Source: Dehalococcoidia bacterium (GTDB lineage: Bacteria; Chloroflexota; Dehalococcoidia; GIF9; AB-539-J10). From it: a DNA stretch of 42,602 nt. The stretch covers positions 1 to 42,602 of the forward strand of contig WJOY01000013.1 of assembly GCA_009619075.1 (NCBI GenBank), written 5' to 3'. Each line of letters begins with the position of its first letter. Within the stretch, counting starts at the first letter, position 1. The translations under genes were made by a program, and so were the position numbers. The notes beneath the pieces are model-generated. The model was not told the origin of the DNA, ran no database searches, and saw only the letters and a program-made list of their open reading frames with translations. Positions 9,397 through 35,917 of the stretch are shown here, piece by piece.

Positions 9397-9425
9397 GAGA
9401 TTGCCTCGCCTTCGGCTCAGAATGA
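9397..9425 (-). repeat. GTCA/GNA-loop hairpin repeat, single partial unit
   Basis: Reverse complement TCATTCTGAGCCGAAGGCGAGGCAATCTC matches the family at 10769, 11135, 18119 and 35802. Confidence 0.75.
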
Positions 9426-9438
9426 GGGTGTTTAAAAT

Positions 9439-9486
9439 GTAGTGCGAGGCTTTAGCCTCGTGCACGACCCTAAAGGGTCGCACTAC
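9439..9486. repeat. REPIN-like doublet of two inverted GTAG-type REP hairpins
   Basis: GTAG-TGCGAGGC-TTTA-GCCTCGTG followed by CACGACCC-TAAA-GGGTCGCA-CTAC. Confidence 0.8.
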
Positions 9487-9592
9487 GAAAGTTTTTGCGA
9501 GATCAGGTATTAAAGCTGAGTGAGACAATTCTAGTTTCGTATCGGAGGCAAAATTAAGCAGCCTAAATAGCAACAAAGGGGCGGTTACCCAA

Positions 9593-10234
9593 ATGACTCT
9601 ATCTCAAAGGATTGTCTTAGCCATACTCAAACTACTCTCCAGGATTTTCCTTTCCTGGAAAGTCAAGGGGAGGGAGAATATGCCCTTAAATGGCCCGCTC
9701 ATCGTGGTAGCCAATCATGTTCACCTTGTTGATGGCATATTGCTGCAGCTTAGCTTCCCCAGGTGGATTAATTTTATGGCTAAACAGGAGCTTTTTCGCT
9801 ATCCTTTCTTAAGAATCATCTTCCGGTGGGCACAAGCCTTTTCCGTGCCTCGTCGAGGGACAATTAGGGATAAGCGAGAGGCAGTTAAGCAAGCCAAAGA
9901 GATACTAAACAAGGGGCTAGTTCTGGGTATGTTCCCCGAGGGTAAGAGAAACCGCGATGGCAAGCTTTTACCTGGTAAATCAGGTTCGGCTGTAATTGCT
10001 TCACAAACGGGTGTTGCTTTGCTTCCTATTGGCATTATTGGCACAGAGAAGCTTAAAGGGATAAGCTGGCTATGGAAGCGTCCTAGCATAGTCATCAATA
10101 TTGGCCAGCCTTTTGAGCTTCCTTCAAGTGATGGCCGGTTAACCAAATCGCAAACTAAAATGTCCACTGACTTAATGATGAACAAAATCGCTGCCCTTCT
10201 GCCCCTGGAAAACCGAGGATGGTATGGAAATTGA
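9593..10234 (+). CDS. plsC: 1-acyl-sn-glycerol-3-phosphate acyltransferase
   Basis: NHVHLVD (HX4D), FMAKQELF, MFPEGKR. Confidence 0.9.
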   Translation: MTLSQRIVLAILKLLSRIFLSWKVKGRENMPLNGPLIVVANHVHLVDGILLQLSFPRWINFMAKQELFRYPFLRIIFRWAQAFSVPRRGTIRDKREAVKQAKEILNKGLVLGMFPEGKRNRDGKLLPGKSGSAVIASQTGVALLPIGIIGTEKLKGISWLWKRPSIVINIGQPFELPSSDGRLTKSQTKMSTDLMMNKIAALLPLENRGWYGN

Positions 10235-11102
10235 GAAAGCTCGAGAACTTGGCTTATGCTTTGGCGTGAGACGAGCCATCAAACTGTTAAAGGAAGCGGC
10301 AAGCAAATACGGCAATATAGAGACCCTGGGACCAGTAGCGCATAATCAGCAGTTGCTGCAAGCATTGACCAAAGTAGGGATAAAACCGATAGACAACCTA
10401 GAACAGGTTCAAGGCAAAATCCTGGCGGTAACCACCCACGGGGTAAGCCCGCAAGTACTATCTCAAATCGAAGCCCGCCATATCAAATTAGTTGATACTA
10501 CTTGCCCTATAGTTCTCCAGGCTCAAAATGCCACCAAGGAGTTAGCCGATAGTGGCTTTGATGTTATCATCTTCGGGGAGGCAGAGCACCCCGAGGTTAA
10601 AGGATTGCTGGGTTGGGCGGGAAATAAAGGTATCGCTGCTCTTGAGGTAAAACAATTATTAGCTGCTAACAAAACGACGCCATATCGCCTAGGCATCATC
10701 TCTCAAACCACTCAAAGCCACTCTGCCTTCATCGAGTTCATAATACAGCTTATAGCTGCCCTTCCTTCTGTCATTGCGAGCGAAGCGAAGCAATCTCTTA
10801 AGGAAATACGCATCATTAATACCTTATGTCAAGTAATTCAAAAACGCCAGGAAGAGGCTATAAGATTGGCGCAAAAAAACCAGCTTATGATAGTGATCGG
10901 GGGACATGACAGTGCCAATACTAAACGTCTGGCTGAAGCATGCTCACCCCTAGTGGAAACTCATCTGGTGGAAGGAGCAAGTGAGGTGAACCGCTCCTGG
11001 CTTGCAGGTAAACACCATATTGGCATCGTTGCTGGGACATCCACTCCAGATGAGGCTATAGAGGAAGTGGTAGCTAAACTGAAGGCCCTACCGGGGGTTT
11101 AG
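10224..11102 (+). CDS. ispH: 4-hydroxy-3-methylbut-2-enyl diphosphate reductase
   Basis: GLCFGVRRA, THGV, DTTCP, HPEV, SQTT, NTLC, SANT, AGTSTP; three cluster cysteines present. Confidence 0.95.
   Translation: MEIEKARELGLCFGVRRAIKLLKEAASKYGNIETLGPVAHNQQLLQALTKVGIKPIDNLEQVQGKILAVTTHGVSPQVLSQIEARHIKLVDTTCPIVLQAQNATKELADSGFDVIIFGEAEHPEVKGLLGWAGNKGIAALEVKQLLAANKTTPYRLGIISQTTQSHSAFIEFIIQLIAALPSVIASEAKQSLKEIRIINTLCQVIQKRQEEAIRLAQKNQLMIVIGGHDSANTKRLAEACSPLVETHLVEGASEVNRSWLAGKHHIGIVAGTSTPDEAIEEVVAKLKALPGV
10769..10797 (+). repeat. GTCA/GNA hairpin repeat in frame within ispH (VIASEAKQS)
   Basis: TGTCATTGCGAGCGAAGCGAAGCAATCTC; GTC at 10770 is in the ispH frame. Confidence 0.88.
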
Positions 11103-11104
11103 TT

Positions 11105-11165
11105 ATCACCCTAAGCGATTAGGAAGGGTCTCACAGATTCTTCGGCCTACGGCCTCAGAATGACA
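11105..11165. repeat. Inverted pair of GTCA/GNA hairpin repeats between convergent ispH and HIT genes
   Basis: ATCACCCTAAGCGATTAGGAAGGGTCTC followed by AGATTCTTCGGCCTACGGCCTCAGAATGACA. Confidence 0.8.
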
Positions 11166-11180
11166 CACAGCAAAAAATTT

Positions 11181-11528
11181 TTAGCCTAGCTGATCACTCA
11201 GCTTCCTGCCACCAATGAGGTGGAAGTGAAGATGAGGCACCACCTGTCCCCCTTCAGGACCACAATTTATCGCCAAACGATAGCCGCTCTCCGCTATCCC
11301 CTCTTTCTCAGCTAGGTTCCTGGCTAATATTATCAGGCGTCCTATAAGCCCCTGTTGTTGCTCAGTAAGCTCTGTTAAAGATGCGATGTGAGTTTTGGGT
11401 ATGATGATTACATGCTTAGGCGCCTGAGGGTTGATATCCCTGAAAGCTAGGAATTCCTTATCTTGGTAAACAATATCACCGGGTATCTCACCAGCAACAA
11501 TGCGGCAAAAAAGACATCCTTCAGCCAT
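11181..11528 (-). CDS. Histidine triad nucleotide-binding protein (HinT/PKCI-like)
   Basis: CLFCRI, AFRDINPQAPKH, GQVVPHLHFHLIGGR. Confidence 0.95.
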   Translation of the reverse strand: MAEGCLFCRIVAGEIPGDIVYQDKEFLAFRDINPQAPKHVIIIPKTHIASLTELTEQQQGLIGRLIILARNLAEKEGIAESGYRLAINCGPEGGQVVPHLHFHLIGGRKLSDQLG

Positions 11529-11550
11529 GCTTATTTTCTATTAACTTTAT

Positions 11551-11790
11551 CTAGGACAGGCCCATTGAAAGGCAAGTTATCGTTCTGCTAATGCCTGGGA
11601 TGGGATGAATCTTCCCGGTAACCAGATTTCCGATGCCCTCAAGGTCCTGAGCCTCGACTGCGGCAATGATGTCGTAAGGTCCAGTTACAGCATCAGCCGA
11701 TTTTACCCCCTCCACCTTGCCCAGAGCAGTAACGACGTTCTTGGTTTTCCCGACTCCGATCTCGATAAGTACAAAAGCTTTGACTGCCAT
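11551..11790 (-). CDS. Stand-alone Lrp/AsnC ligand-binding (RAM) domain protein
   Basis: KAFVLI, VTGPYDIIA, IPGISRTITC; no HTH. Start ATG 11790 with RBS AGGAGGTG. Confidence 0.85.
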   Translation of the reverse strand: MAVKAFVLIEIGVGKTKNVVTALGKVEGVKSADAVTGPYDIIAAVEAQDLEGIGNLVTGKIHPIPGISRTITCLSMGLS

Positions 11791-11883
11791 ACTCCACCTC
11801 CTTATCAAATTTTAACCCGATATGTCTTTTAGTGCAACCGAAAGATTCTTCCATGATTTCGCTTGCTTCAAATTATTATATAC

Positions 11884-11909
11884 TTTGACTATAATTTTTG
11901 ACTATAATT
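11884..11909 (+). repeat. Exact 13-bp tandem duplication in the divergent lrp/miaB promoter region
   Basis: TTTGACTATAATT x2; each unit contains TTGACT and TATAAT. Confidence 0.85.
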
Positions 11910-11942
11910 GTAGAAAGCTTGCGGGTTAGAGAGCGTTTATTT

Positions 11943-12078
11943 TGTCACCCTGAGCCGAAGCCCTGAGCGCAGAGAAGGGAATAGCGAAGGGTCTAGATTC
12001 TTCGCGGAGCCTGTCCTGAGCGGTGTGAGATTCTTTGCTATGCTCAGAATGACGAGGGGCGAAGGGCTCAGAATGACA
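11943..12078. repeat. Nested cluster of GTCA/GNA hairpin repeats upstream of miaB
   Basis: Forward unit 11943-11994 contains an inner CCCTGAGCGCAGAGAAGGG. Reverse unit 11995-12078 encloses CCTGAGCG...GCGAAGG, which encloses GAGATTCTTTGCTATGCTCAGAATGAC (12027-12053). Confidence 0.85.
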
Positions 12079-12112
12079 GGAGGAGGTTGCTAAATAGCCT
12101 CTGGGCTAAATT

Positions 12113-13408
12113 ATGTCAAAGTATTTTATCTGGACCATCGGCTGCCAGATGAATAAGGCAGAATCGCTGCGGATAGCTAGCTATCTAGATTTCCTCAGCT
12201 ATCAAGTTGCACCCTCCCTCCGGGAAGCTGACTTAGTAGTGCTCAATACCTGTGTCGTGAGGCAGAGTGCCGAGGATAAAGTTTTGGGCACGTTGGGTTT
12301 GTTGAAAGGGCTAAAAAAGGAGCACCCGAATCTCTCTATACTGGTTACTGGCTGTTTTGTTGATTCCAACATCGCAGGATTGAAGAGAAGATTTCCCCAG
12401 GTTGATTTTTTCTTCAAGCCAGGAGCTTACCCCGAGCTAACTAACTGGGCTCAAAAGCAGGGCATTTCTACCGCTGAGCAAGGATTGCTTCGCTACGCTC
12501 GCAATGACACATGGAAGTCTCCTTCTCCTTGCGCCTTTGTCCCCGTCATCCAGGGTTGCAATAAATTTTGTTCTTACTGTATCGTCCCATACAGGAGAGG
12601 TAGAGAGGTAAGTCGTCCTTTAGAAGAAGTAGTTTGTGAAGTCAAAGGGCTGGTGAAGCAAGGAGTAAGGGAGGTAATTTTGCTGGGGCAGAATGTCGAT
12701 TCTTATGGCCACGATTTGCCTGGCAATCCCGATTTGGCTGATTTGTTAACCAAATTAAATAACATTAACGACTTAGCTAGAATTCGCTTTTTGACTAACC
12801 ATCCTAGAGATATAAGCCAAAGTCTCATTGAAGCTATGGCTTTCCTGGACAAAGTTTGCGAACATTTAGAGCTACCTATTCAGTCAGGCGATGATGATAT
12901 ACTGAAGGCTATGAGGCGAGGGTATACTGTGGAGCAATATCGTAAGCTTATCCACGCTATTCGATATCATATCCCTCAAATATCTTTGAGCACTGACATT
13001 ATCGTTGGCTTTCCCGGGGAAACTGAGGAGCAATTTGAGCATACTTATTCTTTGCTAGAAGAAATGCGGTTTGATGTTGTTCACGTGGCCGCTTATTCTC
13101 CTCGCCCTGGCACCATCGCCGGGAGAAAATATGAAGATACTGTTCCCCCAGAAGTTAAGAGGGAAAGATTTAATAAAATTGAACAACTCCAGGCAAATAT
13201 AGCTACTGAACTAAACTCCGCTTACCGAGGCAAGACAATGGAGGTATTAGTGGAAGGTGAGAGGAAAGGAAAGTGGTATGGACGCACCAGAAGTGATAAG
13301 CTAGTATTCTTTGAAAACAAGGATGATTGCACAGGGCAACTGGTGAAAATCAGGATTGAGAAAACAAGCCCTTGGGCACTGCAGGGCAAGGTTGGATATA
13401 ATAGCTAA
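12113..13408 (+). CDS. miaB: tRNA-2-methylthio-N6-dimethylallyladenosine synthase
   Basis: TIGCQMN, LNTCVVR, VTGC, radical SAM CNKFCSYC, TDIIVGFPGET, YSPRPGT, C-terminal TRAM domain. Confidence 0.93.
   Translation: MSKYFIWTIGCQMNKAESLRIASYLDFLSYQVAPSLREADLVVLNTCVVRQSAEDKVLGTLGLLKGLKKEHPNLSILVTGCFVDSNIAGLKRRFPQVDFFFKPGAYPELTNWAQKQGISTAEQGLLRYARNDTWKSPSPCAFVPVIQGCNKFCSYCIVPYRRGREVSRPLEEVVCEVKGLVKQGVREVILLGQNVDSYGHDLPGNPDLADLLTKLNNINDLARIRFLTNHPRDISQSLIEAMAFLDKVCEHLELPIQSGDDDILKAMRRGYTVEQYRKLIHAIRYHIPQISLSTDIIVGFPGETEEQFEHTYSLLEEMRFDVVHVAAYSPRPGTIAGRKYEDTVPPEVKRERFNKIEQLQANIATELNSAYRGKTMEVLVEGERKGKWYGRTRSDKLVFFENKDDCTGQLVKIRIEKTSPWALQGKVGYNS
12482..12509 (-). repeat. GTCA/GNA hairpin repeat in frame within miaB, reverse orientation (GLLRYARNDT)
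   Basis: GGATTGCTTCGCTACGCTCGCAATGACA is the reverse complement of the ispH copy with 2 mismatches in 28. Confidence 0.9.
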
Positions 13409-13426
13409 TTAAAAAGGAGGAATGCA

Positions 13427-13705
13427 ATGGAACAACTTCAAGGCATAGCCCCAATTCTCTTTCTGGTATTGATCTTCGCCGCGATGTATTTCTTTATGAT
13501 TAAACCACAGCGCAAGAGACAGAAAGAACAGCAAGAACTAGTGCAGGAACTGAGAAGGGGAGATAAGGTGGTTACCACTGGCGGAATCTATGGACAAATT
13601 GAAAACCTCAGCCAGGATACTGTAGTTCTGCGGATAGAATCAGGGGCAACAATTAAGGTAGCTAGAATCAGCATAGCCGGCAAACAAGGTAAACAGATAA
13701 GATAG
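13427..13705 (+). CDS. yajC: Preprotein translocase subunit YajC
   Basis: TM helix, YFFMIKPQRKRQKE, GDKVVTTGGIYG. Confidence 0.95.
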   Translation: MEQLQGIAPILFLVLIFAAMYFFMIKPQRKRQKEQQELVQELRRGDKVVTTGGIYGQIENLSQDTVVLRIESGATIKVARISIAGKQGKQIR

Positions 13706-13716
13706 AGAGAGATAAT

Positions 13717-13780
13717 TAGCTCACAGCAGACAGCAGTCAGCAATTAGCTGATAACTGAAGGCTGAAAGCTGATAGCTGAA
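13717..13780. repeat. Inverted array of degenerate heptamers
   Basis: TAGCTCA CAGCAGA CAGCAGT CAGCAAT then TAGCTGA TAACTGA AGGCTGA AAGCTGA TAGCTGA; CAGC cores face GCTG cores. Confidence 0.75.
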
Positions 13781-13782
13781 AG

Positions 13783-14691
13783 GTGAATCCCAAACAAGCT
13801 AAAGAAAGGATAGCTAAGCTAAAAAGGGAGCTTAACGCTATTATCGTAGCTCATAATTACCAGCGCCCCGAAGTGCAGGATATCGCTGACTTTACCGGTG
13901 ATTCTCTTGAGCTAGCGCAGAGATGTGTTGGCGCCGATGCGGAGATAATCGTCTTGTGCGGCGTTCGCTTTATGGCTGAGACAGCAGCTATTCTTAATCC
14001 AGCTTCTACAGTGCTCTTATCTCATCCTGATGCTGGCTGTCCTTTAGCAGACATGATCAATGTTGGGGAGCTAAAGCAATGGAAAGAGAGATACCCCAAA
14101 GCTACTGTGGTGGCTTATGTTAACACTACGGCGGCAATTAAGGCGGAAAGCAATATCTGTTGCACCTCGGCTAACGGGATTGAGGTGGTGACCTCCTGCC
14201 TGGCTAAGGAAATCCTCTTTATCCCTGATCAAAACCTAGGACATTATATTTCCACCAAGACCAACAAAAGAATGATTCTCTATCCCGGCTTCTGTGATAC
14301 TCATGCTAAGGTTACTGCTGAGCAAGTTAGCTTAGCCAAGCAGAGGTATCCCCAGGCCAAAGTTTTGGTTCATCCTGAATGCCGTCCAGAGGTTATAAAT
14401 TTGGCTGATGCTGCTTTAAGCACCTCACAAATGCTTCGCTATGCTAAGTCTTGCAATGAGAAAACTTTCCTCATCGGCACGGAGGAGGGAACATTACATC
14501 CCTTAAGGAAGCAAAATCCGGAAAAGGAATTTTATCTTATCAGCGATGGCTTTATCTGCCCTGATATGAAGAAAACAACTTTAGAAACGGTTATTGAAGC
14601 TATGCAGACAAAAAGCAACGTGGTCATCGTGCCCGAGGAAACAAGAATAAAAGCCAAGCAAGCTATTGATAGGATGCTGGCCATAACCTGA
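13783..14691 (+). CDS. nadA: Quinolinate synthase
   Basis: AHNYQ, GDSLEL, CGVRFMAE, AGCPLA, YVNT, CTSAN, PDQNLG, HPEC, CPDMK. Confidence 0.96.
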   Translation: MNPKQAKERIAKLKRELNAIIVAHNYQRPEVQDIADFTGDSLELAQRCVGADAEIIVLCGVRFMAETAAILNPASTVLLSHPDAGCPLADMINVGELKQWKERYPKATVVAYVNTTAAIKAESNICCTSANGIEVVTSCLAKEILFIPDQNLGHYISTKTNKRMILYPGFCDTHAKVTAEQVSLAKQRYPQAKVLVHPECRPEVINLADAALSTSQMLRYAKSCNEKTFLIGTEEGTLHPLRKQNPEKEFYLISDGFICPDMKKTTLETVIEAMQTKSNVVIVPEETRIKAKQAIDRMLAIT

Positions 14692-14700
14692 AAGGAAAGA

Positions 14701-14740
14701 TCCCCTCTCCCTTCACGGGAGAGGGGAAGGGTGAGGGTGG
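14701..14740. repeat. CCCCTCTCCC/GGGAGAGGGG-type REP hairpin with GGGTGAGGG tail
   Basis: TCCCCTCTCCC-TTCAC-GGGAGAGGGGA (11-bp stem) followed by AGGGTGAGGGTGG. Confidence 0.75.
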
Positions 14741-14783
14741 AAAAAATGTTTAAAAAAATCGTAGCACCAAGGTTTTAGCCTCG

Positions 14784-15686
14784 ATGGAAGAGATTATTGA
14801 CCGTGCTTTAGCTGAAGACCTCGGCAAAGGCGATGTCACTACTGAAGCCTTAATACCAAATGACCAGCAAGGGAGTGCCTCCATTATAGCAAAGGAACAA
14901 GGCATTTTGGCTGGCATCGAAGTAGCTAAGAAGGTATTTCCCAAAGTAGATCCAGGGCTAAGAATGGACGTTTTGCTTGAAGATGGATTCAGGATTAAGG
15001 CGAGTGATGTAATCGCCAGGGTAGAAGGCAAAGTAGCTAATATTCTAAAAGCAGAGAGGGTGGCTTTAAATTTCCTGCAGAGGCTGAGCGGGATTGCCAC
15101 GGAAACAAATCGCTATGTGGAAGCAGTCGAGGGATTGCCAGTGCAAATTATGGATACCAGAAAGACAACCCCTAGCTTAAGGTCGCTGGAGAAATATGCT
15201 GTCAGGGTTGGTGGCGGTGAAAATCACCGTATGAATCTGGGCGATGGCATACTTATTAAAGATAATCATCTGGCAGCTCTTCGTAGCCGTGGATTAAGCC
15301 TCAAGGAAATTATAGCCAAGGCTCGGCAAAATGCGCCTTTGTCATTGCGAGGCATCCCAAGCCGAAGCAATGTCGAAGCAAGGCAAATTCAAATCGAAGT
15401 GGAGGTCAAGACTGTGCCAGAAGCTCTGGACGCTGCTGAGGCTGGGGCAGATGTCGTTATGCTGGACAATATGAGTCTTGGAGATATGCGTCAGGCAGTT
15501 AAGATGATAGGTGGTCGTGCCTTAATTGAAGCCTCTGGAGGAATTACCCTCGATAGAGTTCGTGCTGTGGCTGAAACTGGCGTTGATTTTATCTCAATTG
15601 GCGCCCTTACCCACTCAGTCAAGGCTTTGGATATTAGCCTGGAGCTTGAGCCATCTTCTTCTCTGGGGCAAGGCCATGGGCCCTAA
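14784..15686 (+). CDS. nadC: Nicotinate-nucleotide pyrophosphorylase (carboxylating)
   Basis: ALAEDLG.GDVTT, ERVALNFLQRLSGIAT, DTRKTTP, LIKDNH, MLDNM, EASGG, SIGALTHS. Confidence 0.95.
   Translation: MEEIIDRALAEDLGKGDVTTEALIPNDQQGSASIIAKEQGILAGIEVAKKVFPKVDPGLRMDVLLEDGFRIKASDVIARVEGKVANILKAERVALNFLQRLSGIATETNRYVEAVEGLPVQIMDTRKTTPSLRSLEKYAVRVGGGENHRMNLGDGILIKDNHLAALRSRGLSLKEIIAKARQNAPLSLRGIPSRSNVEARQIQIEVEVKTVPEALDAAEAGADVVMLDNMSLGDMRQAVKMIGGRALIEASGGITLDRVRAVAETGVDFISIGALTHSVKALDISLELEPSSSLGQGHGP
15340..15374 (+). repeat. GTCA hairpin repeat in frame within nadC (LSLRGIPSRSNV)
   Basis: TGTCATTGCGAGGCATCCCAAGCCGAAGCAATGTC between KARQNAP and IQIEVEV; read in a different frame from the ispH copy. 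Confidence 0.8.
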
Positions 15687-16368
15687 GCAAAGAGATATCA
15701 TTTAAAATCCTCTCAGTGCTGCCATCAGTAACTATTTCTCCTTCATCCAGTACCACAGCCCGCTGGCATAGAGCCTTTACCAGCTCTAAATCGTGAGCAG
15801 CAACGATCTTAGTCATTGGCAATTGTCTCAGCAGCTCAATTAACGCCCACTTGCTCTTCGGGTCGAGGTTGCTGGTGGGTTCATCTAAAATTAAAAGCTC
15901 TGGACTTAGGGAAAGAACAGTAGCAATAGCAATCCTTTTCTTTTCACCAATGCTGAGGTGATGGGGAGAACGCTGCTCATACCCAGTCATCCCTACCCAT
16001 TTCAGGGCTTGTTTCACACGCTGCTTAATTTCTAACTCAGAATAGCCCATGTTTAGTGGGCCAAAGGCAACATCATCAAAGACAGTTAAGGAGAAAAGCT
16101 GGTCCTCGGGGTCCTGAAACACCAGACCGACTTTTCTCCTTATTTCCTTCAGGTTCCTTTCCTCGACAGGTAACCCAAATATCTTTACCATACTATTGCC
16201 ACGAAGGATACCATTAAGGTGAAGTAAAAGTGTTGATTTGCCAGCGCCATTAGGACCAATCACTGCCACATTCTCACCAGGATAAACCGCTAAATTAATA
16301 TTTTGGAGTCCTTGGTGCCCATCGGGATAAAAGAAGGAAAGATTTTTAATCTCTATAACTTTATCCAT
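15634..16368 (-). CDS. cbiO: ECF-type Co/Ni transporter ATPase
   Basis: GPNGAGKST, VGLVFQDPEDQLF, DVAFGP, HHLSIGEKKR, LDEPTSNLDP. Confidence 0.9.
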   Translation of the reverse strand: MDKVIEIKNLSFFYPDGHQGLQNINLAVYPGENVAVIGPNGAGKSTLLLHLNGILRGNSMVKIFGLPVEERNLKEIRRKVGLVFQDPEDQLFSLTVFDDVAFGPLNMGYSELEIKQRVKQALKWVGMTGYEQRSPHHLSIGEKKRIAIATVLSLSPELLILDEPTSNLDPKSKWALIELLRQLPMTKIVAAHDLELVKALCQRAVVLDEGEIVTDGSTERILNDISLLRAHGLAPEKKMAQAPG

Positions 16369-16381
16369 AATCCTTTAAAAG

Positions 16382-17146
16382 CTACCAAAAGAGAATACCC
16401 GAGGAGAGAAGAACAAGGCCAAAGGTAACGCCAAAATAAGCATCGATTCTTTTGAAATTTAACTGGTGCAAGCTGCGAACTTCGCCATCAAAGCCCCTAG
16501 CTAACATGGCAGCATAAACCCTTTCGCCTCTCTCATAGCTCCGAATAAACAGAGTGCCAAGCATATTGCCGAGAGTCCTTAACTGACGAAGCCTGCCACC
16601 ACCAAAGTTGCGACTATCCCGCGCCCGCCGCATCCGCATCACCTCATCTACCAGAACGAAAATATAACGATACATAAAAGAAAGTATCAGTATTATTACC
16701 TTGGGTATGCCTAACTGCTTCAAGCCCCTTAGCAAGTCAGCAAACTTTGTTGTCGCAGAAAGTAAAATCAAACTTAAAATACAGAGCCAAGCTTTAATCA
16801 CTACATTTGCTAGAACAAGCAAACCATCGTAAGTCACTGAGACCTGCCACAGCCAGATGTTGTAGCTGCCAGCTACTTCGCCAGGCTTAAAAAATGGGAT
16901 AAAGATGGCAATCAGCAAAACAAAAGGAAAAATTAGCAAAGACCTCTTCAGGACATAAAGGGGCGGTAACCTGGAGATAATGAGTAAAGTAGCAATAAGG
17001 CCGAAGTAAAAGGCAAAAGCTTGACAATTTCTAATTGGTGTTAATACCATGACGAAAGCTAGGCTAGCAATAAACTTGGTTCGTGGGTCAAGCCTATGGA
17101 TTAGACTATCTAAGTCGCTATACTGGTCAATAAAACTATGCTTCAC
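16382..17146 (-). CDS. cbiQ: ECF-type Co/Ni transporter T component
   Basis: IHRLDPRTK, FMYRYIFVL, LFIRSYERGERVYAAMLARGF. Confidence 0.92.
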   Translation of the reverse strand: MKHSFIDQYSDLDSLIHRLDPRTKFIASLAFVMVLTPIRNCQAFAFYFGLIATLLIISRLPPLYVLKRSLLIFPFVLLIAIFIPFFKPGEVAGSYNIWLWQVSVTYDGLLVLANVVIKAWLCILSLILLSATTKFADLLRGLKQLGIPKVIILILSFMYRYIFVLVDEVMRMRRARDSRNFGGGRLRQLRTLGNMLGTLFIRSYERGERVYAAMLARGFDGEVRSLHQLNFKRIDAYFGVTFGLVLLSSGILFW

Positions 17147-17420
17147 CTTTCGTCCTTAATAACTTAGCTAGTCCATAACCAATGCTGAAGAGTATAAGTG
17201 TACCGATTATGCCAGCCAGAATTGTTGCTATAGCTTCGCTCCTTATTCCTGGCATCACATAGTCAGGGATGACCTCAAAAACAGCTTCACGGGCTGTTTC
17301 CATAAATCCCTTGTCCTCAGCTACCCTCTCCAGTCCATCAGGAGAGGAAGAAGCCAAAGGAGATAATAAAGCCAAAACCAAGGCAAAAATCAAAGCACCA
17401 TGCCACCACCTAAATCTCAT
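17136..17420 (-). CDS. PDGLE-domain protein (CbiN/NikN-like accessory subunit)
   Basis: LSPLASSSPDGLERVA, PDY, two TM helices. Confidence 0.88.
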   Translation of the reverse strand: MRFRWWHGALIFALVLALLSPLASSSPDGLERVAEDKGFMETAREAVFEVIPDYVMPGIRSEAIATILAGIIGTLILFSIGYGLAKLLRTKGEA

Positions 17421-17432
17421 GTGTTCCTCCTT

Positions 17433-18071
17433 TTAAGCCTTCTGTATTTCCAGTAGGTCAGCTCTGGTAGCCATGATAAAACTGAGCACCGCGGCAGTTA
17501 TCGCGCCTTCACCAATACCAATAAGGGCATGAACACCTGCCATTGCCGGCAAAGCTACCCCTAGTGGTACTATGCCTGAAATAGCTAGCTCAAAGGCACA
17601 GGCAATAGATGCTATCACCACTGATAACCACGCAGCCAAGCCTCCACTACCTAGTATCCTCTTTCTATGCCCGCCGAAAAGCGAAGCATCACCTCGATGA
17701 ACATAATAACCAATAAAGCTAGCAACAATTCCCATGTTAAAGATATTAGCCCCTAAGGCAAAAAGCCCCCCATCTTGAAAAATCAGGCATTGAACCACCA
17801 GCACACAAGTCATTATTAGCACCCCTGCCCAAGGGCCTAGAAGGATAGCGGCTAAAGCAGCCCCAATAAAATGTCCCGATGTGCCTCCTGCTATGGGGAA
17901 ATTAAGCATCTGAGCAGCAAAGATGAAGGCAGCTAATACACCCATGAGTGGGATTTGCTTCTCCCCCATCTTTTTATTTGTCGCCTTGGCAGCGTGGGCT
18001 ACACAACCGGCAGCTACGACACAGCCAACTGTAGCTACTGGCGCGCTAATAAAACCATCAGGTATATGCAT
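17433..18071 (-). CDS. cbiM: ECF-type Co/Ni transporter S component (CbiM/NikM)
   Basis: Metal-binding N-terminus MHIPDGF, FAAQMLNFP, GGTSGH, DGGLFALGAN, IGIGEG. Confidence 0.92.
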   Translation of the reverse strand: MHIPDGFISAPVATVGCVVAAGCVAHAAKATNKKMGEKQIPLMGVLAAFIFAAQMLNFPIAGGTSGHFIGAALAAILLGPWAGVLIMTCVLVVQCLIFQDGGLFALGANIFNMGIVASFIGYYVHRGDASLFGGHRKRILGSGGLAAWLSVVIASIACAFELAISGIVPLGVALPAMAGVHALIGIGEGAITAAVLSFIMATRADLLEIQKA

Positions 18072-18118
18072 CTAAAACCTCCCTTAAATCATATTTTGTA
18101 AGCGTTCAGCCGCTCATA

Positions 18119-18183
18119 TGTCACCCTGAGCGAAGCGAAGGGCCTCCGAGATTCTTCGGTCGTTACGCTCCCTCAGAATGACA
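18119..18183. repeat. Inverted pair of GTCA/GNA hairpin repeats; supplies the stop codon of the upstream methyltransferase
   Basis: TGTCACCCTGAGCGAAGCGAAGGGCCTCC + GAGATTCTTCGGTCGTTACGCTCCCTCAGAATGACA; TCA at 18173-18175. Confidence 0.88.
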
Positions 18184-18814
18184 CTGGGGGTGACCGGTTA
18201 CGCCAATTTGGTGGACTTCGGACTACTTTCTTAGCGATGACTAAATATCGTTTTGGGCTTTCCTCAAGGTAGGTTATTGTCAAGCCAGTGTGCTTCATTA
18301 GCTCACTTAGCTCAAATTCATCGGGTAAAAGGTCATTGGCAACTACGCTACCAATGGATTGGTGCAGTTGATTGATAGCATCTCGGCTGGCAGTATGACA
18401 GATGACTAACTGGCCATTGCTTTTAAGCACTCTGGCTATCTCCTTTAGCGCTTTAGCTTTGTTGTTGAAATGAGGGAAAACGCTATTGCATATAGCTAAA
18501 TCAATGTAGTTATGCAGCAATGGGATAGCTGCAGCATCTGCTTGAACAAAATCCACAATGGACTGGAATCCCTTGGCTTTAGCCTCATGTAACATCTTTG
18601 CCGAGAGATCTAAGGCTATAATTCTTCCTTCGCCTCCTACTGCCTCAATTAGAAAAGGCAATAGAATGCCTGTGCCACTGCCAATGTCAAGTACATGACT
18701 CCCAAGTTTGATATCTAGCTCCTCGATAATATTGCTGAGGCATTCCAGCCTCTCCGGAGTAACCTCCCTATCCCAATTCGGAACTAACTGGTCAAAGTAA
18801 TCTTGAAGCTGCAT
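18173..18814 (-). CDS. Class I SAM-dependent methyltransferase
   Basis: VLDIGSGTG, ALDLSAKML, QADA, FPHF, EIARVLK.NG. Start ATG 18814 directly after the permease stop. Confidence 0.88.
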   Translation of the reverse strand: MQLQDYFDQLVPNWDREVTPERLECLSNIIEELDIKLGSHVLDIGSGTGILLPFLIEAVGGEGRIIALDLSAKMLHEAKAKGFQSIVDFVQADAAAIPLLHNYIDLAICNSVFPHFNNKAKALKEIARVLKSNGQLVICHTASRDAINQLHQSIGSVVANDLLPDEFELSELMKHTGLTITYLEESPKRYLVIAKKVVRSPPNWRNRSPPVSF

Positions 18815-18816
18815 AG

Positions 18817-26226: not shown

Positions 26227-26282
26227 GGCATTCTGATTGGAGCGAGGTAGAATGACAGAAGGCGAAGGGCTCAGAGCTTACA
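26227..26282. repeat. Decayed nested GTCA hairpin repeat between infB and rbfA
   Basis: AGAATGACAGAAGGCGAAGGGCTCAGAG resembles the right ends of the nested clusters (12047-12078, 35885-35917). Confidence 0.6.
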
Positions 26283-26310
26283 GAGGGTGAAGAATTTATA
26301 GGAGGCTCAA

Positions 26311-26758: not shown

Positions 26759-26899
26759 ATGCAAGCATATTGCTTTAAGTGTCGGGCAAAGAGAGATATA
26801 AAAAACCCAACATCCGTCACCCTTAAGAACGGAAAGCCAGCAGTCCGCGGGGTCTGTTCTGTATGCGGGACCAAAGTATTTAGAATTGGCAAGGCTTAA
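26759..26899 (+). CDS. 46-aa basic zinc-ribbon protein, DUF5679-like (absent from ORF track)
   Basis: MQAYCFKCRAKRDIKNPTSVTLKNGKPAVRGVCSVCGTKVFRIGKA; two CxxC pairs, strong RBS, own promoter. Confidence 0.88.
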   Translation: MQAYCFKCRAKRDIKNPTSVTLKNGKPAVRGVCSVCGTKVFRIGKA

Positions 26900-27232
26900 T
26901 CTCCCAGAGTGACATGACTGAGCTAGCAAAGATAATTTTTGTCAACCTCACCGCAAGAAATAACGAATCTTAGCTCAAAATTTGCTGGCGCGGTAATTTA
27001 GCTTAATGCTGCCTATGGTAGCAATAATCAATCCTGATGTTAATAGATTTTTGCTATTATAAGCATCAAAGTTGATTAGAAGTTTAGTTTTGCTTTTAAG
27101 CACTTATAGCTATGTAGCTGTGGGCAGGAGGCATTTATGTGGGTGCTGAGCCTAAAAATCATGTCATGATAGCTACTAAGGTCGCTGCAGCAAGGTGGTT
27201 TCTTTATTTGTCGTAAGGAGGAAAAACGAGCT

Positions 27233-28357: not shown

Positions 28358-28471
28358 GCCGCTTTTGCGACAAAGGCACCAACCTCAAACTATGTAGCTT
28401 AAAAAGAAATCAATTATTCCGTTACCTTGCTCGATGGGGCTTAATAAGGTTGATGAAGTGGGTGACCTAAG

Positions 28472-30795: not shown

Positions 30796-30942
30796 AAATA
30801 AATCCCCCCTCTTAATATCTATTCTCGCCTACCCATCAAATATCTTAACACAAGCAACTCTTATTTTTAAGCTTTTCCTTGAGTTAATTCCAATCCTGAG
30901 GTATGATGCTATAGGCAAATTTGCTGAAGGGCATAGTTTAAG

Positions 30943-31893
30943 TTGTCCCAGATTTCCCTTTCCACTATGTGGGCTAAAGGTAGATTTGGCAATATGACAG
31001 AATTTGTCATTAAAGCCAAGGAATTGGGCTTTACCCATGTTGAAGCAAGCGCCTCTGTTTCTCCACTAGCCCTTACTGAACTTATCAAGACTTCAGTCCC
31101 TATTTCAAGCATTCATTCTCCTTGTCCAGCTGTCTTATCCTCTAAAGGCATCCCAGTAGCTAACCTGTCTCTAAGTTCTATAGAAAAAAGTGAACGAGAG
31201 GAGGCGGTTGATTTCGCTAAGAAAACGATAGACCTTGCCTCAAAAGTAGGCGCTACCGCAGTCATTATCCATATAGGGGAAATGCCGATTAACCTTGGTT
31301 TAGAAGATAAGTTACGTCAGCTTTATAAACAGCATCTTGCCCAAACCAAGGAATATAGCCGGGTTAAAGAACAGCTCGTTTATCAACGTGTTTCCAAAGT
31401 CTCCCCTTTTCTTGAAGCAGCGCGGGAAAGCCTTACAGAACTTAGCAGATACAGCCAAGGAAAGGGGATAATGCTAGGGCTTGAGACAAGGTTCTATTTT
31501 CATGAGATACCAAATATAGATGAGATGGAGGAGTTACTTAAAGAGACAAAAGGAAGACGGGTTGGTTACTGGCATGATGTAGGGCATGCTGAAGTTCAGC
31601 AGCGGCTGGGATTTGCTTCACACGAAGAATGGCTTTCAAGGTTCGAAAACAGGATGATTGGCGTGCATTTACACGACGTTCTTGGCATCTCCGATCATCG
31701 TCCCCCAGGAAAGGGGGATGTGAATTGGGATATGGTGGCTAAGCATCTACCTCGCGCCCCTCGCCAAATAAAGAGTGGTGAAGAGTGGGCGATCCTCGAT
31801 AGGGTGATAAGAGTTTGTGAAATTGCTGAATGGAATGGGGAGAGGCAAATTCAAGGAGTAGTTACCTTCCTGCAAGGCAAGGGGATACTATAA
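30943..31893 (+). CDS. Xylose isomerase-like TIM barrel protein (sugar phosphate isomerase/epimerase family)
   Basis: SIHSP, IIHIG, GLETR..HEIP, WHDVGHA, GVHLHD..GISDH.PPG.G. Confidence 0.85.
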   Translation: MSQISLSTMWAKGRFGNMTEFVIKAKELGFTHVEASASVSPLALTELIKTSVPISSIHSPCPAVLSSKGIPVANLSLSSIEKSEREEAVDFAKKTIDLASKVGATAVIIHIGEMPINLGLEDKLRQLYKQHLAQTKEYSRVKEQLVYQRVSKVSPFLEAARESLTELSRYSQGKGIMLGLETRFYFHEIPNIDEMEELLKETKGRRVGYWHDVGHAEVQQRLGFASHEEWLSRFENRMIGVHLHDVLGISDHRPPGKGDVNWDMVAKHLPRAPRQIKSGEEWAILDRVIRVCEIAEWNGERQIQGVVTFLQGKGIL

Positions 31894-31904
31894 AAGGGAA
31901 CTAG

Positions 31905-32489
31905 GTGGCAAATTTAGTAGAGATTCGAGCGGCTATAGCTTCCCGCATTACTAATCCCTTAGTTGGGATTTTGAGCAAAAGCAGGCTAAAACCCAATACC
32001 CTCACCTTTATTGAGTTGGCCATAAGCCTCGGTGCCGCTTACGCCATTGTCATCGGCTACTTCCTTCTTGGTGGAGCTTTGGTTTTGGTCTCCGGGCTAT
32101 TTGATCTCCTCGATGGGGCACTGGCTCGCTTTACCAAGCAAAGTACAAAGTTTGGCGCTATTCTAGATTCAACGATTGACCGCCTTTCTGAAGCAGCAAT
32201 ATTTTGCGGTCTTTTAGTTTGGTATATGCCAAAAGTAGCCACTCTAGAAATTGTGCTCATTTTTGCCGCTCTAATTGGCTCTTTCCTTGTTAGCTATATA
32301 AGAGCCAGGGCAGAAGGACTAGGTTTGGAATGTCAAGTTGGTTTGTTTACCAGAGCTGAAAGGGTTATAGTATTAGCAGTAGGTTTGCTGGTAAACCAAG
32401 TTTTTATTGCTTTATGGGTTTTGGTAGTCTTTGTTTATATCACTATAGCTCAAAGGCTGCTTCATCTGCATGAAGCAAACAAAAGTTAG
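31905..32489 (+). CDS. CDP-alcohol phosphatidyltransferase, probably phosphatidylinositol(-phosphate) synthase
   Basis: PNTLT, DLLDGALAR...GAILDSTIDR signature, SYIRARAE, RAER; near ino1. Confidence 0.85.
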   Translation: MANLVEIRAAIASRITNPLVGILSKSRLKPNTLTFIELAISLGAAYAIVIGYFLLGGALVLVSGLFDLLDGALARFTKQSTKFGAILDSTIDRLSEAAIFCGLLVWYMPKVATLEIVLIFAALIGSFLVSYIRARAEGLGLECQVGLFTRAERVIVLAVGLLVNQVFIALWVLVVFVYITIAQRLLHLHEANKS

Positions 32490-32500
32490 GGGGTAATTAA

Positions 32501-33790
32501 ATGCCAGTTATAGCTGTTGTAGGAGGTCAGTGGGGTGACGAGGGGAAAGGAAAGGTAATTGATTCCCTGGCCGAGAAAGCTAAGGTAGTGGCGCGTTTCT
32601 CAGGGGGTGACAATGCCGGCCACACAGTTATTAACCCCTATGGCGAGTTCAGGATGCATCTTGTACCCTCCGGTATTTTTTACCCAGGGGTAACTTGCAT
32701 TATCGGCAATGGCGTGGTTATTAACCCGGCAGTACTCCTTGATGAAATAGCCAACCTCAAGAAGCACGGTGTAGATATAAGTCATCTCATCATCAGTGAC
32801 CGTGCCCATCTCATCATGCCTTATCACACCCTTCTCGATGGACTGGAAGAGGAAAGGCGTGGTAAAGGGGCTTTAGGAACTACCCGTAGAGGAGTTGGCC
32901 CTGCCTTTACTGATAAAGTTGCTCGTATGGGAATCCGCACCGGGGACTTATCAAACAAGGATTTATTTCACAGCAAGCTAAGCTCAATCCTCGAATTTAA
33001 GAATGCCATTCTTACAAAGGTATACGGGCATTCGCCTCTGTTACTAGAAGAAATCTTTGAGCAATATTGCCGTTATGGGGAGCAACTGGCTCCACTTATT
33101 CAGGAAACTAACTCCATAATTCGCCAATCTTTAGCCAGAGGAGAGCTACTTTTTTTAGAGAGTGCCCAAGGGACTTTGCTTGACCCCGACTTTGGCACTT
33201 ATCCTTATGTAACTTCTTCTTCGCCATTAGCCGGCGGAGGCTCTATTGGGGCCGGCATAAGCCCAATGGCATTTGATCGCATTATCGGTGTATTTAAAGC
33301 TTACATCACTAGAGTTGGCAGTGGACCCATGCCCACTGAGCTAAAGGACGAGGTTGGCAAACTCATACGTGAGAAAGGTCATGAATATGGTGCTACGACA
33401 GGGAGGCCGCGGAGGTGCGGTTGGTTTGATGCCGTGGCTGGCCGCTTCGCTACTCAGGTAAATGGTTTTAGTGACATAGCTTTAACCCACCTTGATATTT
33501 TTGATGGTTTTTCTTCCATCAAAATATGCACGGCCTATAAATTTGATAACAAGATTCTAGACTCTTTCCCGAGCGATATAGCTATACTAGAGAAATGCCA
33601 ACCTGTATATGAAGAACTCTCTGGTTGGCAAGAGTCAATAAGGGAAATCCGTAATTTTGACCAGCTACCATTGGAGGCCCGCCGCTACATCAACCGGCTT
33701 GAGGAGCTCCTCTCCTGCTCTATTAGCTTTATCGCCGTAGGATCAAGGAGAGAGCAAACGATAAGGGTGAGACCTATTCTCCCTGGGTAA
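32501..33790 (+). CDS. purA: Adenylosuccinate synthetase
   Basis: GGQWGDEGKGK, GGDNAGHT, GTYPYVTSS, TRVGSGP, YGATTGRPRRCGW. Confidence 0.97.
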   Translation: MPVIAVVGGQWGDEGKGKVIDSLAEKAKVVARFSGGDNAGHTVINPYGEFRMHLVPSGIFYPGVTCIIGNGVVINPAVLLDEIANLKKHGVDISHLIISDRAHLIMPYHTLLDGLEEERRGKGALGTTRRGVGPAFTDKVARMGIRTGDLSNKDLFHSKLSSILEFKNAILTKVYGHSPLLLEEIFEQYCRYGEQLAPLIQETNSIIRQSLARGELLFLESAQGTLLDPDFGTYPYVTSSSPLAGGGSIGAGISPMAFDRIIGVFKAYITRVGSGPMPTELKDEVGKLIREKGHEYGATTGRPRRCGWFDAVAGRFATQVNGFSDIALTHLDIFDGFSSIKICTAYKFDNKILDSFPSDIAILEKCQPVYEELSGWQESIREIRNFDQLPLEARRYINRLEELLSCSISFIAVGSRREQTIRVRPILPG

Positions 33791-34688
33791 CCCTGGTGGG
33801 TAAAGGTAAGTCAATTTTATAGTTTTTTAATGCTGCTTTAACAATCTCGGCCGATTTTTCGTCAGGTTCAATCAAAGGCAAGCGCGGTTTGCCCACTGGA
33901 AAACCTAAGTAATTCAGAGCATATTTAACGGGCATAGGATTGGTAACAACAAATAAGGCATTTATCAGAGGCAATAAATGGCGGTGAATGCTAGCTGCCT
34001 CCTGAGTTTCACCGTTAAGAAATTTCTCCATCATGTCTTTTATTTGGATTCCTACTAAATGTGAAGCGACACTGACCACACCATAACCACCCAAAGTAAG
34101 AATAGGCAAGGTATCACTATCATTGCCACTGTAAACTAAAAAGTCATCCTTGGCTCCCTGTATAATCTCAGCTATTTGGCCAAGGTTACCACTAGCTTCC
34201 TTCACACCAATGATATTGTCTATGTGGCTTAGCTTGATTACTGTATCAGCAGCAAGATTAGTGCCTGTGCGTGATGGTACGTTGTAGAGAATACAAGGCA
34301 AAGTTGTGGCTTGGGCAATGGCATTAAAATGCTCAAATAAGCCTTGCTGGGGGGGCCGATTATAATAAGGCACTACTAATACGCAAGCATCAACTCCAAC
34401 CTTCTCTGCTTCTTTAGTCAGCTCCTGACTCTCTCTAGTGTTGTAAGTGCCAGTCCCAGCCACTATTGTTCCACGGTTAGCTATCGCTGACTTGACTTCA
34501 GTAAAAAGACGGAGCTTCTCTTCGAAGTTAAGAGTAGGGGATTCTCCCGTAGTGCCAGAGAGCACCAGACCATCACTACCAGAATTAAGCAAAGCTTGAG
34601 CTAGATTCCTGGCCTGCTGATAATCAACTTTGCCCTGACTATCAAAGGGTGTAACCATAGCTGTTAATAAGCGGCCTGGCTTGTCCAT
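33774..34688 (-). CDS. dapA: 4-hydroxy-tetrahydrodipicolinate synthase
   Basis: GTTGESPTL, PYYNRP, LYNVPSRTG, GVKEASG, SGND, TNPMPVK. Confidence 0.96.
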   Translation of the reverse strand: MDKPGRLLTAMVTPFDSQGKVDYQQARNLAQALLNSGSDGLVLSGTTGESPTLNFEEKLRLFTEVKSAIANRGTIVAGTGTYNTRESQELTKEAEKVGVDACVLVVPYYNRPPQQGLFEHFNAIAQATTLPCILYNVPSRTGTNLAADTVIKLSHIDNIIGVKEASGNLGQIAEIIQGAKDDFLVYSGNDSDTLPILTLGGYGVVSVASHLVGIQIKDMMEKFLNGETQEAASIHRHLLPLINALFVVTNPMPVKYALNYLGFPVGKPRLPLIEPDEKSAEIVKAALKNYKIDLPLPTRVTQGE

Positions 34689-34694
34689 TTTAGG

Positions 34695-35765
34695 CTATCC
34701 CTCCTTTGTCGGATAAGAAGCACGGGAGTGCCTCCCCCTCTTCTTGCGCCCTATCCAGCCCCTTCTTATCCCTTCCTCTGCAATCTGTATAGCATTCAGC
34801 GCTGCCCCTTTACGTAAATTATCAGCTACTACCCACATAACTAATCCATTGGGGTGAGAAATATCCTTTCTGATTCTACCCACAAATACGTGATTTGAAC
34901 CACTAGCTGCCCAAGGTAGGGGGTAGAAGCTAACGCTAGGATCATCAAGAACCCTGACTCCAGGTGCTTGAGCCAAAATTTTCCTTGCCTCTTCCGGAGT
35001 GATAGGTGAAGTAAATTCCACATTCACCGCTTCACTATGCCCGAAGTAAACAGGGACTCGGACGCAGGTTGCCGAGATAGCCATATCCTCAGCATGCATT
35101 ATCTTCCGCGTCTCTTCCACCATTTTCTGTTCTTCTTTAGTATAGCCATTATCCAAAAAGACATCGGTTTCTGGTAACAGATTAAAAGCTATTTGATGGG
35201 AATAGACATGAGGACAAACACGACGCCCCTCTAAAACCAGCTTTATTTGGCTTGTTAGTTCCTTTAAAGCATCAGCACCGCTGTCTGATACCGATTGATA
35301 AGTGCTTACGATGATTCGTTTTATAGGATTAACCTTGTGTAAGGGATAAAGAGCTACTACCATTTGGATTGTAGAACAATTTGGGTTGGCGATTATCCCC
35401 TTGTGCCATTCGATATCCTCAGGATTTACTTCAGGAACCACCAAAGGAACCAAGGGGGCCATTCTAAAAGCAGCGCTATTATCAATAACCACCGCTCCAG
35501 CCTCAGCAGCCAGAGGTGACAGGCGGCGGCTAACATCAGCGCTAGCGGAAAAAAGAGCGATATCAACATTACGAAATATCTCCGGCGTCGCTTCCTCAAC
35601 CTCGATTTTCTGGCGATTAGAAAAAAAGACTTTTATGTCTGAAGAGCGTTCGGGAGCAAGTAGTCGGATCGAAGCTGCAGGGAAATTCCGCTGCTCAAGC
35701 ACCTTGATAAATTCTCGCTCAACAAGCCCAGTGTCACCAACAATAGCTACGTTGAAACCTTCCAT
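34695..35765 (-). CDS. asd: Aspartate-semialdehyde dehydrogenase with atypical nucleotide-binding motifs
   Basis: IDNSAAFRM, VPEVN, IANPNCSTIQ, ATCVRVPV..GHSE, ADNLRKGAALNA. Start ATG 35765; the ORF-track extension runs through a repeat. Confidence 0.9.
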   Translation of the reverse strand: MEGFNVAIVGDTGLVEREFIKVLEQRNFPAASIRLLAPERSSDIKVFFSNRQKIEVEEATPEIFRNVDIALFSASADVSRRLSPLAAEAGAVVIDNSAAFRMAPLVPLVVPEVNPEDIEWHKGIIANPNCSTIQMVVALYPLHKVNPIKRIIVSTYQSVSDSGADALKELTSQIKLVLEGRRVCPHVYSHQIAFNLLPETDVFLDNGYTKEEQKMVEETRKIMHAEDMAISATCVRVPVYFGHSEAVNVEFTSPITPEEARKILAQAPGVRVLDDPSVSFYPLPWAASGSNHVFVGRIRKDISHPNGLVMWVVADNLRKGAALNAIQIAEEGIRRGWIGRKKRGRHSRASYPTKEG

Positions 35766-35801
35766 GCTCTTTCCTCGCAACAGTTCACCCCCCTCAAAAA
35801 T

Positions 35802-35917
35802 ATCATTCTGCGCGCAAGCGAAGAATCTCAAGACCCTTCGCGGAGTTTACCCTGAGCGAGATTCTTCGGTCGCTTCGCTCCCTCAGAATGACAGGAAGCG
35901 AAGGGCTCAGGGTGACA
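35802..35917. repeat. Three-level nested cluster of GTCA/GNA hairpin repeats between dapB and asd
   Basis: Unit 35802-35829; outer AGACCCTTCGC...GCTCAGGGTGACA (35831-35917); middle CCCTGAGCG^AAGCGAAGGG; inner unit 35858-35893. Confidence 0.88.

Follow-up and report, generated by a model that had tools for sequence, protein, structure and literature searches.

The closest described relatives of the element studied here are hairpin repeats tagged CGTC or TGTC. Di Nocera et al. (2013; PMC3733652) define CGTC/TGTC-tagged repetitive extragenic palindromes (REPs), a superfamily that includes Neisseria dRS3 and Rickettsia RPE-4 and RPE-6, and report finding no dedicated transposase for them. Chenal et al. 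(2025, Nat Commun; PMC11893778) describe CGTC-tagged hairpins, named NTS in Neisseria (a subset of dRS3) and SRM in other bacteria, that flank ssnA, the gene of a 94-amino-acid single-domain GIY-YIG protein. SsnA acts on the tagged strand as single-stranded DNA (ssDNA) alone, which it binds and cuts, and not on double-stranded DNA, RNA or the reverse strand; the 3 nt lying upstream of the palindrome have the greatest effect on cutting and the C that follows it on binding. The same paper shows ssDNA-only binding and cleavage for four Ssn/motif pairs and covers Neisseria and Wolbachia hairpins; a preprint of 2026 in which SsnA is mentioned employs the repeats solely for benchmarking. Here we describe a family of tagged hairpins, which we call GA-type units, in a 42,602-nucleotide stretch of DNA, hereafter the window, from an uncultured sediment bacterium of the class Dehalococcoidia (GenBank assembly GCA_009619075.1, contig WJOY01000013.1).

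The analysis followed up an original prediction, made from the letters of the window, that GTCA-led hairpins at nine places belong to a non-autonomous element family recognised as folded ssDNA by an enzyme encoded elsewhere. Systems of this kind have been published. New here are a variant built on G.A pairs and GNA loops, which the published motif does not capture, the heavy burden of in-frame copies that it places on essential genes and an apparent orphan state in this genus.

A dispersed family of tagged hairpins

The window is the entire contig C15 of a draft genome (G000) of 935,948 bases in 47 contigs, with about 45% G+C and 68% completeness. It was compared with four congeners (G001, G002, G003 and G004) and with an outgroup genus (G008); completeness of the genus assemblies ranges from 68 to 95%. 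Each unit is laid out as TGTC-A-[4-nt stem]-GA-[mini-hairpin, mostly with a GNA triloop]-GA(A)-[stem']-T-CTC. The half-site GTCAYYSYGAG was found 11 times in the window against an expectation of 0.13, and none of 100 shuffles reached 11. A strict scan of G000 for tagged units with a perfect 5-bp stem returned 124 units, the set to which all later counts out of 124 refer, in three covarying stem classes, ATTCT, ATTGC and ACCCT. A full-unit pattern matched 45 times in G000 and never in the reversed control; an initial narrower pattern, with one match against 0.16 expected, was superseded by these broader ones.

Copy number was also estimated with a covariance model, R1, trained on 14 units from relatives. 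It placed units at E<=0.01 in at least 112 positions of G000, with 150 of 1086 candidates scored, so that between the two approaches at least 112-124 units are counted and copies outside the window are many. Within the window eight R1 matches passed E<=0.01, with one more at E=0.012; the model missed the copies at 9397 and 15340 and assigned the one at 26227 only E=0.57. All nine places of the original prediction nevertheless hold a copy or a derivative, some on the minus strand, some degenerate and one a collapsed pair, and further minus-strand copies lie at 11134-11165, 11995-12080, 18148-18183 and 35831-35917. In contigs of public runs, summed depth spikes at unit positions, and contig breaks and cross-joins fall there, as repeats predict; the units break up assemblies at these positions. 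The window gave no Rfam match at gathering thresholds, a tRNA scan gave no match, and a literature search with 11-mers returned primer and vector matches only.

Conservation ends abruptly on both sides: upstream it stops at TGTC (96/124; CGTC in a further 9/124) and downstream at the C-T-C past the stem, the full CTC tail being present in 72/124. Information content is T 1.2, G 1.6, T 1.7 and C 1.4 upstream and C 1.5, T 1.3 and C 0.6 downstream, with none further out. These conserved ends, TGTC and the C that follows the stem, coincide with the positions at which mutations have the strongest effect on SsnA. Between them, the commonest form (38/124) consists of a 5-bp stem, GA/GA(A), 2 bp and a triloop; at least 20/124 units add a second GA/GA tier, and some others hold a whole hairpin within the loop. 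GNA triloops number 40 (GAA 20, GTA 8, GGA 7, GCA 5) and ANA triloops 12, the middle base being free. GC-GNA-GC is the most frequent apical element, and the outer G.A tier stands in Y-GA-R context.

The alignment on which R1 is based (A2) was selected on perfect stems and is therefore no test of the proposed stem covariation. When simple units were instead sought with no demand for complementarity, 47 were found against 3 in the reversed control, and 34 of the 47 had perfect stems of four types: TTGC/GCAA (17), TTCT/AGAA (13), CCCT/AGGG (3) and TCCT/AGGA (1). Among the 47, no unit combined a 5' half and a 3' half from different classes. In an alignment of the window copies, 97% of cells are paired and two pairs change on both sides, though this alignment is small and fitted to the model. 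These results bear out the claim that the stems covary.

GA/GA tiers and GNA triloops are strand-specific, since the complement would read TC/TC. Mini-hairpins of the d(GCGAAGC) type, with GNA loops, and tandem sheared G.A pairs are known from the structural literature on DNA. The GC-GNA-GC apex and the Y-GA-R outer tier of the units resemble them, with the difference that those are properties of oligonucleotides and not of a genetic element, and that the folding programs used here lack them. The original prediction reached from sequence alone a mechanism that was demonstrated at the bench only in 2025, which suggests that strand-asymmetric features such as G.A tiers and GNA loops can serve to recognise ssDNA-level elements.

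An untagged module of ~27 nt (GAGCCGAAG followed by a CCCT...AGGG hairpin) recurs within the loops of longer units. It was seen in the window at 11943-11995 and on contigs C1, C12, C17, C20, C23, C28 and C42 of G000, and it is also the 27 nt gained by the unit in the miaB gene of G002.

Comparison with described repeats

The units share with the Ssn-associated NTS/SRM repeats, as these are described by Chenal et al. (2025), a directional hairpin with (C/T)GTC just upstream, an A-T start of the stem, a conserved C just after it, hundreds of copies per genome and a ~95-amino-acid single-domain GIY-YIG gene bracketed by repeats. The A-T start holds in the ATTCT and ATTGC classes and is broken at the second position in ACCCT. 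They differ in that the window family combines a 5-bp stem with G.A tiers and a 2-bp GNA mini-hairpin, whereas SRM form a continuous helix of 8-9 bp; in that ~46% of G000 units lie in crudely called open reading frames (ORFs), against 2% of NTS inside genes in Neisseria meningitidis; and in that no intact nuclease gene was found in G000.

With the wider CGTC/TGTC superfamily of Di Nocera et al. (2013), the units have in common a CGTC, TGTC or sometimes CCTC tag, the A-T stem start, a short unpaired tail, paired inverted copies, copies in genes and the lack of a link to a REP-associated tyrosine transposase (RAYT). Judged on the text descriptions in that paper, superfamily members have an 8-9-bp stem, a 4-5-nt loop and a CCA tail, whereas the window family has a stem interrupted by GA/GA, a 3-nt loop and a CTC tail; CTC (72/124) agrees with the CCA consensus in the first C only. 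At least 128 stretches of reference genomes, from many phyla, contain exact 25/26-mers of the unit; Bradyrhizobium, Micavibrio and Sphingomonas are among them, and in all three the superfamily too is reported. Supplementary Data 4 of Chenal et al. (2025) lists two of these, Bradyrhizobium and Micavibrio, as rich in SRM and as having an ssnA homolog; Dehalococcoides mccartyi, the sole representative of Dehalococcoidia that a search of the supplement turned up, is marked as lacking ssnA.

Two more distant systems are similar in outline. REP/REPIN-RAYT and IS200/IS605 systems also pair a 5' tetranucleotide with a hairpin read on one ssDNA strand, with inverted copies at the enzyme gene and many satellites; REP/REPIN-RAYT differs in using an HUH tyrosine in place of GIY-YIG and a GTAG tag in place of TGTC. 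Rickettsia palindromic elements, reportedly found by Ogata et al. in 2000 to be inserted in frame in protein genes, are likewise short palindromic repeats translated in frame within essential genes; most are longer, they belong to another lineage, and they are likened here by description alone.

Small GIY-YIG genes of the class are bracketed by GA-type units

The original prediction named small GIY-YIG nucleases and HUH/RAYT transposases as candidate enzymes and proposed to look for the gene families most often flanked by inverted pairs. Within G000 itself no gene between unit pairs was singled out, because the units are too dense for pair flanking to point at any gene. Matches to the GIY-YIG family PF01541 in 31 relatives were mostly UvrC, but several were genes of ~95 codons bracketed by TGTC units. 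The encoded Ssn-like protein of 95 amino acids has PF01541 as its sole Pfam domain (63 bits); a search of NCBIfam gave only a sub-threshold match to group I intron endonucleases, and its closest solved relatives are the UPF0213 proteins 1zg2 (E=1.6e-4) and 1ywl (E=4e-3). A search of 301 genomes of the class with one such protein gave matches at E<=1e-8 in 106 of them, frequently several per genome.

Units cluster tightly around these genes. At the 30 best Ssn-like loci, from 30 genomes and some of them cut by contig ends, strict GA-type units lie within 250 nt on both sides in 13, on one side in 9 and on neither in 8; small GIY-YIG genes of the Ssn type, with units nearby at 22 of the 30, show the predicted signature. 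Unit density at these loci was 4.18/kb near the gene (60 in 14,337 bp) and 0.04/kb more than 400 nt away (2 in 56,700 bp). Across the class, an Ssn-like gene is present in 54 of the 83 genomes with at least 10 units outside the ATTGC class and in 52 of the 218 others, an odds ratio of 5.9 uncorrected for kinship, in a tally for which genome lists were matched by hand and which includes the unpublished genome G265. A pattern scan, which undercounts, found ATTGC-class units in G026 and other genomes.

A tree of 33 Ssn-like proteins, poorly resolved, places seven of the eight genes flanked by ATTCT, ACCCT or ATTCC units in one group (88/69, weak support) and all 16 genes flanked by ATTGC units outside it, a hint of matched pairs of nuclease and stem class. 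In the genus of the window, an Ssn-like remnant truncated at its 5' end (residues 24-95, 69% identity) is present in G003, with a reverse unit directly after it. Of the two candidate enzyme types, the small GIY-YIG nucleases therefore stand through the class genes bracketed by GA-type units, and the HUH/RAYT transposases fall away, as the RAYT gene of G000 is flanked by REPs tagged GTAG.

Ssn-like genes can be multi-copy, with 17 matches in G038, several of them with internal stops, and 9 in G282; these two genomes suggest that the gene itself is or was mobile.

Units are gained and lost between congeners, also within essential genes

If the hairpins were conserved terminators, their positions would be fixed among relatives; instead, copies differ between congeners at nadC and at five other sites. 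The insert of 14 codons in nadC is present in G000 and G003 and absent from G001, G004 and the outgroup G008, and is therefore a gain. The ispH unit is found in all four congeners examined and is absent from G008 (a 27-nt difference), while the unit in miaB has 27 extra nucleotides in its loop in G002 and a degenerate 5' half in G001. The pair at 11104-11165 is present in G004 and absent from G002, and G003 has another insert of ~590 bp in its place. At 26227 the window is 35 nt shorter than the intact inverted pair of G001 and G002, and 79 nt of the cluster at 35801-35917 are missing in G002.

Gene contexts rest on a crude ORF-based gene call. By this call, 57 of the 124 units (~46%) lie within ORFs and 39 are deep in long ORFs (sense 30, antisense 9); this excess of sense copies may have to do with the tolerance of the peptides that they encode. 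Among units in tandem intergenic contexts, 20 point the same way as the flanking genes and 14 the opposite way, so that orientation there is not tied to transcription. Three window units are translated in frame, in ispH, miaB and nadC, and the Pfam matches LYTB and QRPTase_C span the inserts in ispH and nadC, respectively. For annotation this means that ~30-45% of units sit in open reading frames, and that enzymes such as IspH and NadC are 9-14 residues longer because of them.

Several other differences were seen at these loci. The ispH unit of G002 (L004/L007) and the miaB unit of G001 (L003) share the same degenerate 5' half, in which a string containing TAGCTAC replaces the stem, and keep an intact 3' half. 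In G003 and G001, nadC directly abuts a methyltransferase gene, and a 2.5-kb stretch is missing that in the window (15661-18225) holds four genes resembling cobalt transporters of the ECF type together with the 18119-18183 pair. The insert of G003 (L006, contig C14, 2298-2890, syntenic to window 11078-11182) is 590 bp long and contains a small gene flanked by A-rich repeats; we take this gene to encode a four-helix-bundle protein of the 23S rRNA intervening-sequence type.

A probable nuclease-partnered ssDNA element and its alternatives

Taken as a whole, the family is probably a GA-rich variant of the CGTC/TGTC hairpin repeats (NTS/SRM), partnered with an Ssn-type GIY-YIG nuclease whose gene seems decayed or unassembled in this genus. 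According to this model, the features predicted to fold (the 5-bp stem, one or two tandem G.A tiers and the GNA-capped mini-hairpin) are found on the tagged strand only, and therefore the unit would act when that strand is single-stranded DNA. An Ssn-type nuclease would, by homology, bind the hairpin and the C just after it and nick the ssDNA at a position a few bases 5' of the GTC tag. Related genomes of the class have the nuclease gene placed between units in the manner of a miniature insertion sequence, and the far commoner solo units would be its non-autonomous satellites, which may have spread into intergenic DNA and, where length and frame permit, into surface-tolerant parts of essential genes. 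In the present genus the nuclease gene seems to be decayed or unassembled, and the window copies may therefore be orphans. By analogy with the homologous hairpins, the GA-type units would be Ssn substrates, and Ssn activity would be what copies them; because no Ssn-like gene was found in G000 or in three of the four congeners, recognition within the genus is something that we infer. On this reading the original prediction, in which an enzyme encoded elsewhere recognises the element at the level of ssDNA, is supported, in that it matches the activity reported for homologous CGTC-tagged hairpins by Chenal et al. (2025).

A number of results weigh against this model. The published degenerate SRM search sequence matches 0/124 units, and its three matches in the genome compare with 2-5 in simulated genomes, so that G000 would count as SRM-free by the method of Chenal et al. 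(2025). In the same paper, the activity of N. meningitidis SsnA was abolished by a change of stem sequence that kept the hairpin, and cross-recognition of so different a stem can therefore not be assumed. Among the 83 unit-rich genomes of the class, 29 lack an Ssn-like gene, including G009 at 98% completeness, and no such gene was found at E<=1 in G000 (68% complete), G001, G002 or G004. Neither target-site duplications nor clean insertion boundaries were discernible at the polymorphic sites. Unit orientation showed no significant bias relative to local GC skew (72/124, p=0.09), and hence no lagging-strand signature. Finally, nearest-neighbour folding gives the expected fold with energies no better than those of shuffles, as DNA or as RNA (z -1.0 to +1.3); because the energy models give no credit to G.A pairs and GNA loops, these energies neither beat shuffles nor separate DNA from RNA.

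If the model holds, the reach of the Ssn/hairpin system extends to uncultured sediment Dehalococcoidia and, because the published SRM motif misses the whole GA-type branch, the reported spread of the system is underestimated. Each new pair of nuclease and hairpin is also a candidate site-specific ssDNA cutter, and the genes at L032, L196 and L203 come with probable sites. We regard as possible, though doubtful, a bolder version in which GA/GNA units form a separate Ssn recognition class that is read through its non-Watson-Crick fold, with nuclease sub-lineages matched to stem classes, in which nicking drives copying, including into coding DNA, and in which units outlive their nuclease as orphans.

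Among the alternatives, the one that survives best is that the units are orphan hairpins with no dedicated enzyme in the lineage, kept and reshuffled by host processes such as slippage, template switching and recombination between copies. This would fit the finding of no Ssn-like gene in four of the five genus genomes, with only the truncated remnant in G003, and the losses of 35 nt at 26227 and of 79 nt at 35830, which resemble internal deletions or collapses between neighbouring units, as well as the growth of tagless nested modules within loops. However, nadC has cleanly gained a tagged unit where none stood before, which slippage leaves unexplained, the association of gene and units in the class is ~100-fold, and with genus assemblies 68-95% complete a repeat-flanked gene, of a kind that assembles poorly, may be missing. 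We therefore consider an enzyme-free origin unlikely, while an orphan state in the genus today is quite possible and compatible with the nuclease-partnered model.

It is less probable still that the units act as RNA, as transcribed G.A hairpins with a part in transcript termination or stability or in protein binding, although single copies may have such a role. RNA, too, can contain tandem G.A pairs and GNA loops, RNA folding predicts the same structure, and many copies lie just 3' of genes (25 co-oriented and 14 anti-oriented copies within 150 nt); many REPs work as RNA, as Di Nocera et al. (2013) argue. The absence of Rfam matches at gathering thresholds speaks against a known RNA family, however, and both orientations are common in intergenic and intragenic positions alike. 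The hairpin is followed by the CTC tail and not by a T-run, N. meningitidis SsnA is reported not to bind the RNA form (Chenal et al., 2025), and what the units associate with is a nuclease gene, not the ends of transcripts.

Mobilisation of the TGTC units as REPs by the HUH Y1 transposase of G000, in the manner of GTAG REPINs, was rejected as highly improbable: although G000 does encode such a RAYT (Y1_Tnp, PF01797, 57.7 bits, C42:4724-5044) and REP/RAYT systems too use a 5' tetranucleotide and a hairpin read as ssDNA, this gene does not fit as partner because it is flanked by hairpin doublets of its own GTAG-tagged REP family, with no TGTC units, PF01797 was found in only 6 of 31 relatives and in none of the unit-rich G008, G015 and G018, and Di Nocera et al. 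(2013) found no dedicated transposase for CGTC repeats.

Features of the window

The units of the window and the three genes that host in-frame copies are collected in Table 1.

Table 1. GA-type units, their derivatives and host genes in the window (positions are those of the window)
Feature	Position	Strand	Details
Degenerate hybrid unit	9397-9428	-	3' of cmk; CCTC tag, 5' stem ATTCT, 3' stem GCAAT, GCC-GAA-GGC mini-hairpin; half-site with 1 mismatch
ispH (LytB)	10224-11102	+	hosts the 10769 unit; Pfam PF02401, 250 bits, residues 3-287
Clean ATTGC-class unit	10769-10797	+	in frame within ispH; peptide VIASEAKQS
Unit pair, tails facing	11104-11165		ispH-hit spacer; degenerate ACCCT (+, 11104-11132; ATC replaces GTC) and ATTCT with GGCC-GTA-GGCC (-, 11134-11165)
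Nested ACCCT-class unit	11943-11995	+	second CCCT...AGGG hairpin in loop; predicted fold of nested helices
Minus-strand cluster	11995-12080	-	3' remnant, full ATTCT unit (12027-12054), 5' half-unit (12058-12080)
miaB-type methylthiotransferase	12113-13408	+	hosts the 12481 unit; Pfam UPF0004, Radical_SAM, TRAM
Clean ATTGC-class unit	12481-12509	-	antisense, in frame within miaB; peptide LLRYARNDT; UPF0004/Radical_SAM linker
nadC	14784-15686	+	hosts the 15340 unit; Pfam QRPTase_N, QRPTase_C
ATTGC-class unit, longer inner hairpin	15340-15375	+	in frame in nadC; part of the 14-codon insert
Unit pair, tails facing	18119-18183		ACCCT (+, 18119-18146; clean apart from one A.C closing mismatch) and two-tier ATTCT (-, 18148-18183)
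Collapsed inverted pair and remnants	26227-26290		collapsed pair 26227-26257; intact pair kept in G001 and G002
Cluster	35801-35917		degenerate ATTCT (+, 35801-35829; ATC replaces GTC), minus-strand remnant, two-tier ATTCT (-, 35858-35893), ACCCT 5' half (-, to 35917)

A second repeat family is represented in the window at 9421-9570. It is ~145 nt long and consists of a double hairpin bounded by GTAG...CTAC with a conserved tail; tens of copies were seen in the congeners, with stems that vary from copy to copy. This is probably the GTAG REPIN family that belongs to the RAYT gene of G000. At 8010-8349, two overlapping minus-strand ORFs encode peptides that resemble pieces of an integrase/transposase core.

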